64,000 nt of DNA from the NCBI GenBank assembly GCA_024614665.1, contig GCA_024614665.1_4861.1; one strand, given 5' to 3'. The notes under the pieces are model-generated. The model was not told where the DNA came from and did not search any database. It saw nothing but the letters and a program-made list of their open reading frames with translations. The translations under genes were made by a program, and so were the position numbers. How positions within the stretch are numbered: position 1 is the stretch's first letter; every line of letters starts with the position of its first letter. Positions 4,789-22,551 of this stretch are shown piece after piece. The stretch comes from a phage.

Positions 4789-5172
4789 TCAGTTAAATCC
4801 GCTGTATTCGTCAATGGTGCCGTCTTTGATGTACACGCCCGGCGTCAGTGCGACTTTACGCGGATCTTTATCAGCACGCTCGCCGTTACACTGGACATTC
4901 CATTCGTTGGTTAAACGTTCCATTTCACGACTTGCATACAGCCGTACATTCGTAACTAACTCGCTGGCTTCGCCCAGGTGCGACGCATGGAGCACGCTGT
5001 TTTCCAGCCCGTAAAGTTTAGCGAGTAGAATCTTGTTAAGTTCTAACGCTGCTTTTGCAACGAGCGCATACCCTTGACGTTGCCCTTCTGTGCTTGCATT
5101 CAGTAACGTCAGCTGATGGTTTTTCATGTGTTCGATTGCCAGTGCTAAGTCGGTGTTCGTTGGCATTTCCAT
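4789..5172 (-). CDS. hypothetical protein, 127 aa
   Basis: ORF track; tightly packed with neighbours. Confidence 0.55.
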   Translation of the reverse strand: MEMPTNTDLALAIEHMKNHQLTLLNASTEGQRQGYALVAKAALELNKILLAKLYGLENSVLHASHLGEASELVTNVRLYASREMERLTNEWNVQCNGERADKDPRKVALTPGVYIKDGTIDEYSGFN

Positions 5173-5492
5173 TAGTATTTATCCTCACGTTTGCTAAACT
5201 CTTCTAACATCTCGTCGTACACATTCCTGGTATCTTTCAATCCCTGGACGGCCGCGTCATAGACGCGACGCGCAGGAGACGTAAGATGGTAGTGTCCAAT
5301 ACGTTCGATGATATCGTGGCACCGGCTAATGTGCGTACAAAGCCTACTCGCGTTAACACCCAGTTTCGCGAGGTCGTGTCTTAACTGCAAGTTATCGGCC
5401 TGTACACGACGGATAGCGGCAGCTAATTCTCGGTTTTCTTCGTACAGTTGTTTTTGTCGCTTGTTAATCAGCGCAAGTAACCAGTTCAACAT
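5172..5492 (-). CDS. hypothetical protein, 106 aa
   Basis: ORF track; start overlaps stop of upstream gene. Confidence 0.55.
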   Translation of the reverse strand: MLNWLLALINKRQKQLYEENRELAAAIRRVQADNLQLRHDLAKLGVNASRLCTHISRCHDIIERIGHYHLTSPARRVYDAAVQGLKDTRNVYDEMLEEFSKREDKY

Positions 5493-5502
5493 CCTGTCCC
5501 CC

Positions 5503-6021
5503 TTAACGCTTCAGATAGATAACGTTATGGTTTTCGTATTTCGCATCTACCCAGGAAAATTCCCAGTAGTGGCGAGGCCGATCAGCAATTTTCATGTCCA
5601 GTTCCAGGATACCATCTAAAGGTACCTGTCTGAGCACTTCTACGATGCTTTGCAGCTCGTTACGAGGACGGTCGTGGATTAACCCCAGATAACGCTCCAA
5701 ACGCTCAGGCGTCGCTACAGTGCGAATATGAGTACGTTTATCGTCATCGTGTAAGTAGAGGAAGTTCGGGGTGCGAGGGACGTACCAGTGCCAGGTACCG
5801 ATGTACGGGCCAGGCTGATAATCAGACAGTTGTTTGATTGCATTCAATACCGACGAACAACGGAAATACCAGATGTCCCATTCATCACGAGGGAACAGTT
5901 CCGCGACTTTCACTTTCAGTGGGTCGATACTAATATCCCCCGCAGCCAATACTTCTGGGGCAACGCCAGATTCTAAAACGTTACGTTCCCGTTTGGTGTA
6001 CAGGTTCATGGTAATATTCAC
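5503..6021 (-). CDS. hypothetical protein, 172 aa
   Basis: ORF; GTG start at 6019-6021 with TAAGGAG 8 nt upstream (alternative ATG at 6009). Confidence 0.55.
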   Translation of the reverse strand: MNITMNLYTKRERNVLESGVAPEVLAAGDISIDPLKVKVAELFPRDEWDIWYFRCSSVLNAIKQLSDYQPGPYIGTWHWYVPRTPNFLYLHDDDKRTHIRTVATPERLERYLGLIHDRPRNELQSIVEVLRQVPLDGILELDMKIADRPRHYWEFSWVDAKYENHNVIYLKR

Positions 6022-10861: not shown

Positions 10862-10897
10862 TAACGCCTCCAGAAACAAAAAAATAAGCTACCACAC

Positions 10898-10925
10898 ATA
10901 TGATCGTGTGGTAGCCTACTCGTAC
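10898..10925 (-). terminator. hairpin terminator
   Basis: CTACCACAC-loop-GTGTGGTAG followed by a U7 run on the minus strand. Confidence 0.55.
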
Positions 10926-10929
10926 GCCG

Positions 10930-11325
10930 TTAGTGTAGTGTAGCGCTGTGCACCACAGTTAACCCGCGACGTTTGATCTCATCCGCGATGGATTGCAACA
11001 GCTTATCGTAACCCACCTTTACAAATTCAGGTAAGCCACGGTCAACCATCTCCATCTCGGTGATTTCTTCACGGAAAACTTGACAACAGCCTTCTAAATA
11101 ACGTTTAGCTTCTGTCACGTCATCGACATACCGCGCATAACTCAGGGCGATCGCGTAACCTTCTGCAATAAACGCATACTTCATGAAGACTTCTGGGTCG
11201 AGTTCTTCAACTGCCACGTCTAGACGTGAAGCGGTCTGACGTACAGAGTTACGTAATGATTCAGAAAACAGTGTAGTCGTAACCATATCCTGATTGGGAA
11301 CGGTTTTAGGCATAATCAATTTCAC
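10930..11325 (-). CDS. hypothetical protein, 131 aa
   Basis: ORF track; hairpin terminator at 10898..10925 downstream. Confidence 0.55.
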   Translation of the reverse strand: MKLIMPKTVPNQDMVTTTLFSESLRNSVRQTASRLDVAVEELDPEVFMKYAFIAEGYAIALSYARYVDDVTEAKRYLEGCCQVFREEITEMEMVDRGLPEFVKVGYDKLLQSIADEIKRRGLTVVHSATLH

Positions 11326-11336
11326 GATGACTCTCC

Positions 11337-11720
11337 TTACGATAACTCGCCCATGTAAATTACTTCATAACCGAACCACTCACCGATATCAATAAGGTAA
11401 GAAACTAGCAAGTGGCGATGACAGAATTTCCCCGGTGGGCAATAGCACATTAGTACGACCTCGCCCTGGCGGAGAATCTCTATCAACTTATCAGTGTCTT
11501 CATCAAACAACCGACTAAGTTTCTGCAGGTAGCGTTTGGTATACGCAGCTTCTGCGTCGGGGCCTTTGTCAGACTTCTTGTAGTCCATCAGAAAGTCCCA
11601 GTCAGGTGCCAAATATTTCAGCCCCGACTTAACCGTTATATCCAGCTTTGGCAAATTCCGTTTTTCAGCTATCCGCCACTTCGCCAGTTGGAGCGTCCAC
11701 AGCTTTACATGCTTTGGCAT
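11337..11720 (-). CDS. small protein with C-x-C-x5-C-H-R motif, tentatively DUF488/YeaO-like
   Basis: Pattern K.LAP..(gap)RY..L..(gap)VVLMCYCPPGKFCHRHLL parallels the DUF488 family as I recall it; start ATG at 11720 overlaps the 3' end of the PP-loop gene. Confidence 0.45.
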   Translation of the reverse strand: MPKHVKLWTLQLAKWRIAEKRNLPKLDITVKSGLKYLAPDWDFLMDYKKSDKGPDAEAAYTKRYLQKLSRLFDEDTDKLIEILRQGEVVLMCYCPPGKFCHRHLLVSYLIDIGEWFGYEVIYMGELS

Positions 11721-12672
11721 TATTCGCTCTCTCTTTTTCTTTCTCCTGAAGCGCTTTAAAATGCGGTGCATATTCGCACCACTCTTCTGCTGTAAATGAC
11801 GTGATAAACAGTCTTTCGGTATCTTCGGTTACCGTAAAGGTTGTGTGATTTCTTTTCGGGTCCTTAAAGTTAGCAAAAGTCGGTACGTCCAAACCCATAG
11901 CAGAAATAGCACCACCAAGAGCAGAGCACCATACCCGTCTGTAAGCATCGTTGATTTTAATCTCCCATCCCACAGACGGTGTAATACCAAGACTACGATA
12001 ATTCTGCGACTTTGCCGACGGATGGGCATAAACGATGAGCATGTTATTCTCACGGTCTATCGCGAATTCGTAGTTGTTGTAGTTACTGACCTGCACCAAT
12101 CTACGAATGTCTTCCGGCAACTCCTGCCACATTTCCAGTTTCTCTTTATCCCACGCAGGTGTTAGAAGCGGTGGAACGCGGCCGGCATGATCTTGGAAAT
12201 ACATCAGTTCGCTATAAAGGTTCTTTAAGCGAGCGTACTCGTCTAATGTCCAATCTCCCAGCTCTAGACTATTCTCCAACGCATCTAGCTTATTCCAGCC
12301 AACAACTGCATAGGCGTGGTGCTGTTTGCGTGTAATGTCGCACATCAGTTTAGCGAGGCCGTTAACAACATTGCCTTGCTGAACCAGAGGCGACCAGCCG
12401 TTAGCGTAGCCGGCGCTAACGACAGGCGGAAAGTTCTCTTCCCCGAGCACCGCCCATGTAACACGATCGGTTTGTGCGTGGTATCTGTCCATTAACCGTT
12501 CAACAATGGCCACACTACAAAGAATTTCCATGAAGTTCGCGTTACCTCCATTCCACATGGAGAAATATGCAGGACGGACATGTCGCGCTTCATTGGCCGG
12601 TGCTTTGCACAACAGCTGATACATTATCCAGGTGGAATCCAACCCTGCTGAAAACGAAACAAGCTTTGTCAT
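11665..12672 (-). CDS. PP-loop ATP pyrophosphatase superfamily protein (PAPS reductase / QueC-like), about 335 aa
   Basis: N-terminal SFSAGLDST matches the SGGxDS PP-loop motif; ATG at 12670-12672 overlaps stop of upstream gene (ATGA). Confidence 0.6.
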   Translation of the reverse strand: MTKLVSFSAGLDSTWIMYQLLCKAPANEARHVRPAYFSMWNGGNANFMEILCSVAIVERLMDRYHAQTDRVTWAVLGEENFPPVVSAGYANGWSPLVQQGNVVNGLAKLMCDITRKQHHAYAVVGWNKLDALENSLELGDWTLDEYARLKNLYSELMYFQDHAGRVPPLLTPAWDKEKLEMWQELPEDIRRLVQVSNYNNYEFAIDRENNMLIVYAHPSAKSQNYRSLGITPSVGWEIKINDAYRRVWCSALGGAISAMGLDVPTFANFKDPKRNHTTFTVTEDTERLFITSFTAEEWCEYAPHFKALQEKEKERANNAKACKAVDAPTGEVADS

Positions 12673-13154
12673 TGTTTCACCGTATGTAGAAATTGATAAC
12701 GTGGGGTTTCTTCTGCCACAACATCGAAAGATGGGATGCAAACAATCTTCCCATATCCATCGAGTTCTATACGTGGAGAAATCGTGATGGTGCCTGCACG
12801 CATCACTTCAATCGCTAACGCTTTGAGTGGGCCGTGTGGTGTGAATTCACCGCGGAGTTGAAAGTAACCATCGACAACGCCATAGCAGACGTTCGATACA
12901 TAACCGCAAACGCGTACGAGTTCAATACAACGTATCCGATCAATGGCGGCCTTTACTTCCCCGAACGATTGACACGGTTTAATCACAGGCGCGTCGAATT
13001 CACAGAAAACGTGTCCGCGACGTAATGCTAACGATATCGTTTCGTCGGGACGGGCCGAGTCTTTAAATTCGTCGCACGGTATAGACAGTATCAGTCCACT
13101 CGCGGATGCCACGGTTTGTGCGGGTATTTCCTTAACCTCGGTTTGTAGTTTCAT
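12669..13154 (-). CDS. hypothetical Cys-containing protein, 161 aa
   Basis: ORF track; translationally coupled to the PP-loop gene. Confidence 0.55.
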   Translation of the reverse strand: MKLQTEVKEIPAQTVASASGLILSIPCDEFKDSARPDETISLALRRGHVFCEFDAPVIKPCQSFGEVKAAIDRIRCIELVRVCGYVSNVCYGVVDGYFQLRGEFTPHGPLKALAIEVMRAGTITISPRIELDGYGKIVCIPSFDVVAEETPRYQFLHTVKQ

Positions 13155-13454: not shown

Positions 13455-14152
13455 CAGTAATCCCCCGTTGCCCCTATCGCAGTCGCTACTTTACTGGCAA
13501 CCTCGTCAACCGGAAGCACCACCTCGTCTTTCTTGCTCACAATCTCTGGTACTTCTTTGACATGTTCAACGGTCACGTCAAACTTCCGAGTATAACCGAC
13601 AAGTAACTTTGCCATATCTGCACGACTAACGAACTGTTGTTCTTCCGACAGATGTAACGACGTATCAAGTAGTCCAGAATGCATGAAGTTTTCAATGAGC
13701 TGGTCTTCTTCCGCTTTGAAGTCGTATCGCTCGTTCGGTGCAGCCACAAATGCATAACCGAAATACTTCCCCTCTTCCTGTTCAGGGCGTAACGATTTAA
13801 CTAACTCCTCAGCGTGTTCGCAGAAGTCCGCCAAAGTATAATCGTCAAGTGTGGCAACTGCGGTTTCTGTTACAATTTCACCGGTGTCGAGTTCAGTGAG
13901 GTGCATCACCCAAAGATGCCATGGTCGCGGTTGGTCGAACAGCCCACCGACTAACATATCTGTGGCGATAGCACGAATACGAGGACTTGCCGTAAAGTGA
14001 AAACCACGGCCCGCGTACGGCCCGAGGCGACGAATCGAACTGCCGATAAACGTGATACGATTCAGAGCGTTTTCAGCGACGGTGTGTGCCGTACGTTCTG
14101 TGGCAACTTTCGGGTTATACTTTTTGTTACGGGGTTTCTTTTGCTTAGCCAT
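13454..14152 (-). CDS. hypothetical protein, 232 aa
   Basis: ORF track; start overlaps upstream stop. Confidence 0.55.
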   Translation of the reverse strand: MAKQKKPRNKKYNPKVATERTAHTVAENALNRITFIGSSIRRLGPYAGRGFHFTASPRIRAIATDMLVGGLFDQPRPWHLWVMHLTELDTGEIVTETAVATLDDYTLADFCEHAEELVKSLRPEQEEGKYFGYAFVAAPNERYDFKAEEDQLIENFMHSGLLDTSLHLSEEQQFVSRADMAKLLVGYTRKFDVTVEHVKEVPEIVSKKDEVVLPVDEVASKVATAIGATGDY

Positions 14153-14622
14153 TAGTTAAAAACCTTTTTGCAAACTGTGTGGAATACTTTACGAATTTCA
14201 CGAAGGGATTGTTCGGTGTGCAGATAACGATACGTTATCTTCCACGCGTTATACGTGTTTTTCAGGGTGATTTCGCTGAGGTCATAAACGAAATCATCAT
14301 CAGGGTACATGAGTCTCGCCATGGATAAATCCCACAATGGTGGAATATCCGCTTTCATTAACTCAGCAACTAGCTCATGCGCTTTGTGCTCAAAGCCAAC
14401 ACCAAGAACAAACACTACATGGAATTCCCCTGGCGAGTTCTTTTTAGAATATGGTCCGTGTCCATGACATGACCACATTGTCGTCGCGCCGGGGTAACGG
14501 CAAATAACTTCACACGCATCCCGTACCCCACGCTCGACCCAACCGTTTACGAGCGCTTCGGATGCCCGTAGTTTAAACCGATCCAAAACTTTCAGATCCA
14601 CGCCACCGTATAAAACTGGCAT
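14152..14622 (-). CDS. hypothetical protein, 156 aa (contains CHGHG)
   Basis: ORF with CTTAAGGAG SD before ATG. Confidence 0.55.
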   Translation of the reverse strand: MPVLYGGVDLKVLDRFKLRASEALVNGWVERGVRDACEVICRYPGATTMWSCHGHGPYSKKNSPGEFHVVFVLGVGFEHKAHELVAELMKADIPPLWDLSMARLMYPDDDFVYDLSEITLKNTYNAWKITYRYLHTEQSLREIRKVFHTVCKKVFN

Positions 14623-14650: not shown

Positions 14651-15103
14651 TTAATGGTTGTGTTCTGTAAAAATTGCGAGTGCGAGCCAGTGCTCCATCA
14701 CGCTTTCCATCACATCTGGGTCAGGCCGATAGTTGAGTCTAAACGTCCAGCTCGGATAACAGAGATTTGCATTGCCTTCGTGACGCAGCCAACTAAAGTT
14801 TAACTGAAAACGTTTCCCGTATTCATGCGGCTGCCATCCTTCTAATAAACGATTAATGTCTTTAAGACCCGCTTCGGTGGCCACAAATGTTAAGCTGTGG
14901 TGTCTACGTGTACGTAGCTTGTCTCCATCTTTGCGAACTTCTCCCGTAAATGCCCAAACAGTTGCGATATTCGGCCATTCGCTAAATGCCCTAATAATTG
15001 CACGCGTTTTAACATCGACTGGTTTTTCAGCATCCAGCGCCCGGATTGTGCGCTGCTTGTACGCGGCCAATTCCGCATCATTGACGACTGAACATTGAAA
15101 CAT
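14651..15103 (-). CDS. hypothetical protein, 150 aa
   Basis: ORF track. Confidence 0.55.
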   Translation of the reverse strand: MFQCSVVNDAELAAYKQRTIRALDAEKPVDVKTRAIIRAFSEWPNIATVWAFTGEVRKDGDKLRTRRHHSLTFVATEAGLKDINRLLEGWQPHEYGKRFQLNFSWLRHEGNANLCYPSWTFRLNYRPDPDVMESVMEHWLALAIFTEHNH

Positions 15104-15136: not shown

Positions 15137-15163
15137 CCCTACCTAACCGAAGTTAGGTAGGGG
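15137..15163 (-). terminator. UUCG-loop hairpin terminator
   Basis: CCCTACCTAAC-CGAA-GTTAGGTAGGG then U-rich tract; downstream of 15169..15474. Confidence 0.65.
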
Positions 15164-21927: not shown

Positions 21928-22551
21928 CTAACCTGCCAGAATACGTTCAACGATACGCGCGGCTTGTAACGCTATATCGTCGTCAGCCGTAACGCGCATC
22001 AGCGGGAACTTATCGCCGCCATCTGTGGTGATGTGGAAAGCAAAACGGTAGTGGTCGCGTAACGCGTCCCAATCAGTCTGTGAGCGCAGATACTTCGCTG
22101 TCAGTACCTCATCATCCCAGTTCTTGCCCTGGGCTTCTGCGCGCTTCTTAAAGCGTTCTGTGGCGGTTTCGTAGGATACATCGGTTGCCACGTAAAGTTT
22201 CGGTGTGTTAATGTGGTCTAATACCCGTGAACGGAAAACTTCCCCTTTACCATCGACGCCTTGGTAGACAATAGTCGATTGACAAAAACGGTCAAAAATA
22301 ACGACATCGTGCTCTGGCACAACGAAATCCATCGTGTATTGGAAATCCAGACACATCGCTTTAGCAATGCGTTCGTTAGAAGCGTGCTGGATAACCAGAG
22401 AACGTGCACTAATACCGGCTTCAGTGGTATTCGTCGGGTGATTGACGATGATGACATTAACGCCAGCGGAGCGCAACATCGCTTGAATCATTTTCGCGAG
22501 TGTTGATTTGCCAGAAAAGTCCGGACCATCCAGCGCCACTGAGTTTAACAT
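21928..22551 (-). CDS. tmk: thymidylate kinase (dTMP kinase)
   Basis: P-loop LDGPDFSGKST near N-terminus and DRFCQSTIVYQG matching the Tmk DRxxxSTxAYQG motif; ATG at 22549-22551. Confidence 0.75.
   Translation of the reverse strand: MLNSVALDGPDFSGKSTLAKMIQAMLRSAGVNVIIVNHPTNTTEAGISARSLVIQHASNERIAKAMCLDFQYTMDFVVPEHDVVIFDRFCQSTIVYQGVDGKGEVFRSRVLDHINTPKLYVATDVSYETATERFKKRAEAQGKNWDDEVLTAKYLRSQTDWDALRDHYRFAFHITTDGGDKFPLMRVTADDDIALQAARIVERILAG

Follow-up and report, generated by a model that had tools for sequence, protein, structure and literature searches.

Three overlapping genes around a divergent QueC-type PP-loop enzyme in an SPN3US-like jumbo phage: probably block neighbours rather than a modification module

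The 64,000 nucleotides of phage DNA analysed here (NCBI GenBank assembly GCA_024614665.1, contig GCA_024614665.1_4861.1; this whole stretch is called the window) contain three overlapping genes, which an earlier note made from the sequence alone had proposed as a candidate module for nucleotide or DNA modification, composed of a PP-loop ATPase and two Cys-motif partners. The three open reading frames (ORFs) were found where that note had placed them, all on the minus strand and overlapping through an ATGA junction and a stretch of 56 nt, and are homologs of gp117, gp119 and gp120 of Salmonella phage SPN3US. In the interpretation favoured here with moderate confidence, these consecutive jumbo-phage genes, encoding a protease paralog, a divergent QueC/Cap9-type enzyme and a DUF488-N3a enzyme, are neighbours within a conserved gene block and not a dedicated module. 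It is carried by the observed gene identities, folds, motif conservation, taxonomic distribution, variable neighbourhoods and absence of deazaguanine pathway genes, and a three-gene module for hypermodification of DNA or nucleotides is not supported. What remains is a small variant family of PP-loop proteins of the QueC/Cap9 type, found in jumbo phages only so far, and a broadly conserved DUF488 enzyme, neither of which is surprising in kind.

The 2.5 kb around the three genes are 99% identical to SPN3US and 93-99% identical to about 30 relatives. SPN3US is a phiKZ-related, nucleus-forming jumbo phage of 240 kb in the genus Seoulvirus, and its original gp numbering is used for the genes of the window, whose main features are as follows:

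12669..13154, minus strand: gp117 homolog, 161 aa, a truncated and diverged paralog of the prohead protease gp245
11665..12672, minus strand: gp119 homolog, predicted PP-loop ATP pyrophosphatase, 335 aa from the ATG (the longest ORF starts with a TTG at 12741)
12103-12672, minus strand: N-terminal Rossmann-like PP-loop domain of gp119, residues about 1-190
12631..12657, minus strand: pyrophosphate-binding PP-loop motif SFSAGLDST, gp119 residues 6-14
11668-12087, minus strand: family-specific C-terminal domain of gp119, residues about 196-335
11337..11720, minus strand: gp120 homolog, DUF488-N3a, 127 aa from the ATG (the longest ORF starts at 11771)
11415..11447, minus strand: active-site-like motif C92-Y-C94-P-P-G-K-F-C100-H101-R102 of gp120, invariant in a 19-sequence alignment
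11665..11720, minus strand: dual-coding overlap of 56 nt, read directly from the sequence, in which the 3' end of gp119 lies over the 5' end of gp120
12669..12672, minus strand: ATGA stop/start overlap of gp117 and gp119, a product of the absence of gp118

Judged by sequence and predicted fold, gp119 is a PP-loop ATP pyrophosphatase with nearest relatives of the QueC type, constituting a divergent QueC/Cap9 branch without the zinc site, and its earlier identification from SFSAGLDST is upheld. Direct searches with Pfam, NCBIfam and PADLOC gave no significant match (the window protein showed none to the Pfam QueC family, PF06508, at E <= 0.1), a single-sequence search of PDB sequences returned noise only, and the PHROG of gp119 carries no assigned function. 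Relatives numbered 17 in a word-indexed search and only 46 when a profile was searched exhaustively against 1.84 billion cluster representatives; the gene occurs in about 90 phage genomes, and every family member with a traceable source comes from a jumbo phage genome or a contig of jumbo size. G10 and S13 of the PP-loop are invariant across 41 aligned members and G-L-D-S-T-W (L11-D12-S13-T14-W15) in the 11 closest; SGGLDST, the canonical form, or TGGLDST is found in most members, SAGLDST being the form of the SPN3US group, and the loop lines up with FSGGQDST in QueC and SGGMDS in Cap9. An AlphaFold2 model computed from the family alignment was confident (pLDDT 82, pTM 0.85). gp119 has the SGGxDS(T) loop after the first beta strand and the Rossmann-like alpha/beta fold that are characteristic of the N-type PP-loop superfamily. 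This fold is common to QueC, ThiI, TilS, NAD synthetase and GMP synthetase. In a comparison of the family profile with PDB chains Cap9 ranked first (3.8e-5), followed by QueC (2e-3) and TilS (2.9e-3), and structure comparison gave the same nearest relatives. Aligned with hhalign, the family matches Escherichia coli QueC at 93.8% probability over residues 1-184, ending just short of the QueC zinc motif, and weak matches to PF06508 appear in nine of the 41 relatives (E <= 0.01, best 2.4e-6). A housekeeping enzyme such as asparagine synthetase, against which the modification proposal had been set, is thus not what gp119 turned out to be.

The experimentally defined signature of QueC comprises YxQxHxxE, VPxRN with the essential R99, YPDC with the essential Y131, and the zinc motif C(x)8CxxCxxC (PMC13329287). 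Of these and further QueC features, gp119 keeps the SGGxDS loop, E42 of YxQxHxxE as E49 (the rest of that motif is gone), N100 of VPxRN as N101, and PLMWxxK165 as P172-x-W174-D-x-x-K178, whereas the essential R99 is replaced by G100, VPxRN reads QQGN with an invariant Q98, YPDC has become GDWT and the zinc motif has disappeared entirely. The replaced residues are those that hold 7-carboxy-7-deazaguanine in QueC, and gp119 is accordingly predicted not to be a preQ0 synthase. Where the zinc ribbon would be, the family has a C-terminal domain of its own, about 150 residues long, unrelated to QueC (PF06508 cluster 1) and marked by an invariant Lys221 and a K-x-x-E-Y...G-I motif. No conserved Cys column was present in the 41-sequence alignment, and since neither Cys nor Fe-S ligands are conserved, gp119 would not be a sulfurtransferase, which speaks against the sulfur chemistry that the earlier note had considered as well.

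We infer from these comparisons that gp119, as a member of the QueC branch, is catalytically active and forms adenylates, but that its substrate pocket has been remodelled. By analogy with the mechanisms of QueC and Cap9 (for the latter, 10.1101/2025.04.06.647259), gp119 would bind Mg-ATP on the PP-loop and adenylate a carboxylate or lactam carbonyl of a small substrate that is probably planar and resembles a nucleobase or nucleotide, whereupon AMP would be displaced by an amine nucleophile, either ammonia or an amino group on a second molecule. On this mechanism gp119 would be an amidoligase or aminase.

The small third protein, earlier described as DUF488-like with a C-x-C-x5-C-H-R motif, proved to be just that. 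It passes the Pfam gathering scores of DUF488-N3a (PF22751, 45.6 against 27 bits) and DUF488 (PF04343, 28.3 against 22.2 bits), and C92, C94, F99, C100, H101 and R102 do not vary among 19 homologs, so that the conserved Cys/His/Arg motif of the 'active' DUF488 subclade is present. Its AlphaFold2 model is very confident (pLDDT 95.7) and of the rhodanese-phosphatase type, with RapZ-C as the nearest fold and phosphatases next. gp120 is therefore predicted to belong to the RapZ-C/DUF488/DUF4326 branch of the rhodanese-phosphatase superfamily and to be a Cys-dependent phosphotransfer enzyme, which would probably transfer phosphoryl groups on a sugar, nucleotide or RNA-end phosphate. For this clade Burroughs and Aravind reportedly predicted, in 2023, transfer of sugar and nucleotide phosphates. 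Compared with the DUF488/DUF488-N3a family, including gp151 of phiKZ (38.7% identity over 98% of the length, E 1e-17), gp120 shows no distinguishing feature. The gene is common across jumbo phages of the chimallivirus type. Other homologs were found in PA1C, Noxifer, Phabio, Ea35-70, PCH45 and SA002 and in some smaller phages of Vibrio, Aeromonas and Pseudoalteromonas. When gp151 was targeted in phiKZ with an antisense oligomer (ASO), about ten times as many plaques were counted, and at 30 min the transcription of the phage was strongly disturbed (Gerovac et al., 2025; PMC12571901).

Whether the PP-loop and DUF488 genes belong together was judged from their neighbourhoods. They are adjacent in the SPN3US/Erwinia superclade only, usually with an overlap of about 40-56 nt, which was seen in SPN3US-like phages, SPAsTU, pEa_SNUABM_29, Caitlin, ChrisDB, phiEaH2, Stratton and Asesino and persists at about 40 nt in Erwinia phages whose PP-loop proteins share 31-35% identity. 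In Wellington, Kwan and locus L006 the two genes lie 2.5-3 kb apart with three inserted genes between them, including an HslU/ClpX-like AAA+ ATPase, and in Salmonella phage SA002 the distance is 108 kb. A DUF488 gene without an adjacent PP-loop gene occurs in phiKZ, in Phobos (L020) and in two metagenomic phages (L019 and L021); a 341-aa protein upstream of DUF488 in Phobos, considered as a candidate PP-loop gene, is unrelated to the family. On a larger scale, tblastn found gp120 homologs in 290 phage records, mostly without a PP-loop gene, so that DUF488 is not the dedicated partner that the proposed module implied, and because it mostly occurs without gp119, the function of gp120 is taken to be independent of it.

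The PP-loop gene has no fixed partner either. In three divergent metagenomic phiKZ-like contigs of 65-236 kb a thymidylate kinase gene (Pfam 2.7e-36) lies directly downstream of it, and in Pseudomonas phage EL such a gene follows 200 bp after it; no recognisable partner was found in SA002, nor in Klebsiella phage Miami, pEa_SNUABM_37 and two Aeromonas phages, in which last four the neighbours are unrelated genes. Two genes upstream of the PP-loop and thymidylate kinase genes of EL, gp198 (L023, 3784-4602) has a weak, sub-threshold NUDIX match (E 0.002), and in Miami a dihydrofolate reductase (DHFR) gene lies about 4 kb downstream of the PP-loop gene. The thymidylate kinase adjacency points weakly, and taken together with the NUDIX-like match and the DHFR gene hints weakly, at a place of gp119 in nucleotide-pool metabolism. 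The thymidylate kinase gene of the window phage itself is located at about 21928-22551 on the minus strand, the same strand as the PP-loop gene and about 10 kb upstream of it. As chimalliviruses generally keep the gene order of their core blocks and have thymidylate kinase among their cytoplasmic core genes (Prichard et al., 2023), adjacency in this phage family is weak evidence of linkage, and it was concluded that gp119 and gp120 are independent enzymes whose genes happen to adjoin in one clade.

The alternative that lies closest, a genuine two-enzyme pathway of gp119 and gp120 in the SPN3US/Erwinia clade, is regarded as rather unlikely. In such a pathway gp119 would adenylate and amidate a nucleotide, a NAD/ADP-ribose derivative or an RNA end, gp120 would add or remove a phosphate on the same molecule, and in EL-like phages thymidylate kinase would take over the phosphotransfer. 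The overlaps of about 40-56 nt, kept down to 31% PP-loop identity, would fit this, as would the circumstance that the alternative neighbour in EL-like phages is likewise a nucleotide phosphotransferase and the phosphate transfer reportedly predicted for the clade of DUF488, and gp120 also gave weak matches to the PADLOC candidate-defence models PDC-M45C (4.8e-5) and PDC-M19A (0.0015). It is opposed by the wider distribution of DUF488-N3a (290 phage genomes as against about 90 for the PP-loop gene), by the phages with DUF488 and no adjacent PP-loop gene, by the separations in SA002 and in Wellington, Kwan and L006, and by the light weight that adjacency carries where gene order is conserved family-wide.

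Concerning the overlap itself, the frame of gp120 is +1 relative to gp119, and a purine-rich GAGAAAGAAAAAGAGAGAG stands just 5' of the gp120 ATG. The conserved gp119 tail (…D-x-x-x-G-E-V-A…) shares its nucleotides (11665-11720), in a different frame, with the conserved N-terminal strand of DUF488 (LWTLQLAKWR); the tail is not conserved in P0017 or in L006, in the latter of which the genes are non-adjacent, and its conservation is probably a by-product of dual coding. A fusion of gp119 and gp120 by +1 frameshifting was considered and rejected: the gp120 frame is open for 108 nt 5' of its ATG, but no canonical slippery site was present and no natural fusion was found.

Cap9 of type IV CBASS and QatC of QatABCD, both protein deazaguanylases of the QueC family, are the other relatives against which gp119 has to be measured. 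Like QatC, the gp119 family retains the ATP loop while the substrate pocket is remodelled and extensions are added. However, Cap9 retains the catalytic signature of QueC and its zinc site, QatC retains a variant of the zinc site, and gp119 has neither; moreover, both are proteins of defence systems, whereas gp119 is encoded by phages and outside defence islands. Its neighbours are a protease paralog, DUF488, thymidylate kinase or unknown proteins, and among the neighbouring genes examined no CD-NTase, Cap10, QatA/B/D-like or TGT-like partner was recognised, which leaves the closest fold and profile match as the sole resemblance. A weak Acb2/Tad1 match in locus L007, examined as a possible anti-CBASS sponge in a neighbouring gene, did not recur when two homologous loci were compared.

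Two readings build on this resemblance. It is improbable, in our estimation, that gp119 founds a phage branch of QueC/Cap9/QatC, in which a new domain stands in for the zinc ribbon and a nucleobase-like carboxylate would be ligated to an amine of a protein or metabolite; as part of this reading gp119 might counter or mimic the deazaguanylation-dependent immunity of type IV CBASS and QatABCD, and in the SPN3US/Erwinia clade might act jointly with the DUF488 phosphotransferase. The narrower reading, that gp119 acts as Cap9 or QatC do, ligating a carboxylated small molecule to a protein N-terminus or amine, or serves as a mimic or decoy against these systems, is given even less credit. Distant family members weakly match the 190-position PADLOC 'QueC' model (7e-4 to 1e-2), QatC likewise lost the canonical substrate motifs of QueC when its target changed, the additional C-terminal domain could be a docking site for another protein, and nucleus-forming phages should, in our view, stay exposed to cytoplasmic signalling defences. 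The zinc site kept in both Cap9 and QatC and lost in gp119, the lack of a recognised CD-NTase, QatB or TGT-like partner among the neighbours and the failure of the Acb2/Tad1-like match to recur in two homologous loci all speak against it.

The hypermodification module as first proposed fails already at its first gene. The 161-aa protein, earlier taken for a Cys-motif partner, has seven Cys, none within a recognised or conserved motif (by eye, two of the seven align with Cys of the one distant homolog inspected), and is a homolog of gp117. It matches phrog_7478, 'head maturation protease' (8e-48), and weakly, below the threshold, Pfam Peptidase_S80 (E 0.013; 15.2 against 23.4 bits), and is 98.8% identical to SPN3US_0117. 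Ali et al. (2017; PMC5694885) recognised gp117 as a paralog of gp245, the real prohead protease, that had diverged more than expected: its S126 and D144 match the positions of the catalytic Ser and Asp, whereas the His finds no match and the C-terminal part is absent. Both S126 and D144 were found in the window copy. Set against the prohead protease of giant phages (MEROPS S80; phiKZ gp175, SPN3US gp245), gp117 thus shares the Ser126/Asp144 alignment and is a recognised distant paralog, but it has 161 aa instead of 267, lacks the C-terminal targeting region and leaves the catalytic His unaligned. In SPN3US the gene of gp245, the working protease, lies 117 kb from that of gp117, and gp117 is not part of an enzyme module. 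In phage EL and metagenomic phiKZ-like phages (L007-L011), the PP-loop gene is preceded on its own strand, at a distance of 3.7-6 kb, by a true S80 prohead protease gene (in the EL locus, L023, at 5001-5918 and 458-1321, respectively); the corresponding relative position in SPN3US is held by the paralog gp117, which may mark the ancestral protease locus.

Neither is the junction of gp117 and gp119 a conserved one. According to its annotation, SPN3US carries a 110-aa gene, gp118 (locus L002, 3667-3999), between the two, and alignment of the window with SPN3US DNA shows a clean deletion of gp118 between 'ATGAAGAAAG' and 'ATGACGAAGCT', two ATGA-type start motifs. In the window gp117 ends ...GTG AAA CAA TGA with the gp119 ATG embedded, and because gp118 is deleted in this strain, the ATGA overlap is strain-specific and not a conserved coupling. 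Of the translational coupling that had been suggested for all three genes, the overlaps themselves are therefore real, whereas the coupling of gp117 and gp119 came about through the deletion. Judged by match lengths, gp118 also seems to be absent from SaP7, SPLA5c and SEGD1. The gp118 product starts with MKKVLVLLGALVAPMVAHAA, which reads as a signal peptide, and a small protein of the secreted type does not fit the published idea that gp118 could be the C-terminal part which the protease paralog gp117 lacks.

With regard to a 7-deazaguanine pathway, for which the earlier note had suggested checking the genome, DpdA, FolE, QueD, QueE and Gat-QueC of phage 9g served as tblastn queries for a search of the window and of the entire genome of SPN3US. 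DpdA had no match at E <= 1 in either, at the sensitivity of a single-sequence tblastn search, FolE and QueD gave chance-level matches only (E 0.19-0.93), QueE showed generic radical-SAM similarity in SPN3US (E 0.006), and Gat-QueC met gp119 at the PP-loop only (E 0.5). The linkage of QueC to queD, queE and folE has no counterpart for gp119 in the SPN3US genome, whose whole-genome RefSeq annotation contains no Que or Dpd gene names and lists thymidylate kinase, thymidylate synthase, DHFR, MazG, an HD protein, a DNA methyltransferase and two generic radical-SAM proteins. The genes of the latter two, which encode 442 and 264 aa, are adjacent at 140024-142139 of SPN3US, outside the window (L016, 40024-42139), and their products have general Pfam Radical_SAM/Fer4_12 matches only. 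As far as genome content can tell, 7-deazaguanine modification of DNA from this locus is without genomic support in SPN3US-type phages.

A module in which the three genes hypermodify phage DNA or nucleotides through 7-deazaguanine derivatives or sulfur chemistry is accordingly held to be highly improbable. Its appeal lies in the fact that QueC- and DndC-type PP-loop enzymes do act in DNA modification, that the nearest characterised relatives of gp119 are QueC-family proteins and that one JGI record names a homolog 7-cyano-7-deazaguanine synthase, but it founders on the protease paralog and the deletion artefact at its start, on the substrate motifs and zinc site not retained in gp119, with the essential Arg changed to Gly, on the lack of a conserved Cys for persulfide or Fe-S chemistry and on the DpdA/TGT, FolE and QueD genes not found in SPN3US by tblastn. 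Equally little credence is given to the idea that gp119, like the PP-loop enzymes TilS, ThiI and TtuA, modifies tRNA or other RNA in the service of phage translation, since the pI of 5.5-5.6 makes both domains acidic and gives no hint of an enzyme that binds nucleic acids, domain searches detected no THUMP, PUA or other RNA-binding domain, a catalytic Cys or Fe-S ligand for thiolation is missing and the profile prefers QueC/Cap9 to TilS.

Several points weigh against the preferred reading of three neighbours and an independent gp119. The retention of the gp119-gp120 overlap at only about 31-35% PP-loop identity could mean a real functional pairing within the clade, and the adjacency of thymidylate kinase, a core chimallivirus gene, to the PP-loop gene may be plain synteny. 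A very divergent DpdA- or TGT-like protein could escape tblastn with a single query, and since the host supplies 7-carboxy-7-deazaguanine and preQ0, gp119 could have a deazaguanine substrate despite the lack of pathway genes. Finally, the chemistry, substrates and cellular roles given for gp119 and gp120 are inferred, that of gp119 being an extrapolation from its superfamily.

The combination of genes had not been recognised as a described pathway in the earlier note, and this still holds: a literature search found no paper tying jumbo phages to PP-loop enzymes or, relevantly, to a QueC-like synthase, and the SPN3US literature checked contains no mention of gp119 or gp120. The QueC fold is known to have been repurposed, as work of 2025-2026 showed protein-nucleobase conjugation by Cap9 and QatC in anti-phage immunity, and a zinc-less QueC branch with a remodelled pocket in nucleus-forming jumbo phages would extend this repurposing to the side of the virus. 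gp119 would then provide a defined biochemical target in a phage family with mostly uncharacterised core and accessory genes. The phiKZ homolog of the DUF488 gene has a knock-down phenotype, and a working system of amber-mutant genetics in SPN3US makes both gp119 and gp120 experimentally tractable. That genome content lends no support to DNA hypermodification from this locus in phages of the SPN3US type is a negative result that saves effort.

Two further features frame the locus, each identified as a consensus match only:

15137..15162, minus strand: terminator-like hairpin 5' of the gene run gp113..gp121, with an 11-bp stem including six G-C pairs, and a T-run
10882..10921, minus strand: terminator-like hairpin right after gp121 (10930..11325), with a 17-bp stem followed by TTTTTGTTT

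The hairpins bracket eight co-oriented genes, gp113 to gp121, and are likely, from their sequence, to be the boundaries of a transcription unit that holds gp117, gp119 and gp120. In the same putative unit, gp114 and gp113 (14152-14622 and 14651-15103, minus strand) are adjacent paralogs of each other, both matching phrog_7413 of unknown function (6e-56 and 7e-59, respectively). In several SPFM assemblies (LR5359xx) the locus was matched in 36-40 short pieces with truncated or frameshifted proteins (P0006-P0011), and these records look like error-rich assemblies, not natural variants.

In Erwinia jumbo phages, lastly, the locus includes the HslU/ClpX-like AAA+ ATPase mentioned above, with 580-682 aa (L004, 2045-5512; L006, 6845-9168; L020, 1957-4005), accompanied in L004 and L006 by a partner gene for 182 and 194 aa, respectively; in L006 this ATPase block sits between the PP-loop and DUF488 genes. 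No homolog of the ATPase was found in SPN3US, which encodes an HslV-family peptidase at 1186-1677. In ChrisDB (L004) the two ORFs directly after the ATPase are gp117-like by eye, a similarity that tblastn did not confirm, and two gp117 homologs have been reported for this phage (Ali et al.; PMC5694885). The Erwinia locus could encode an ATP-dependent protease built from a capsid-protease paralog.

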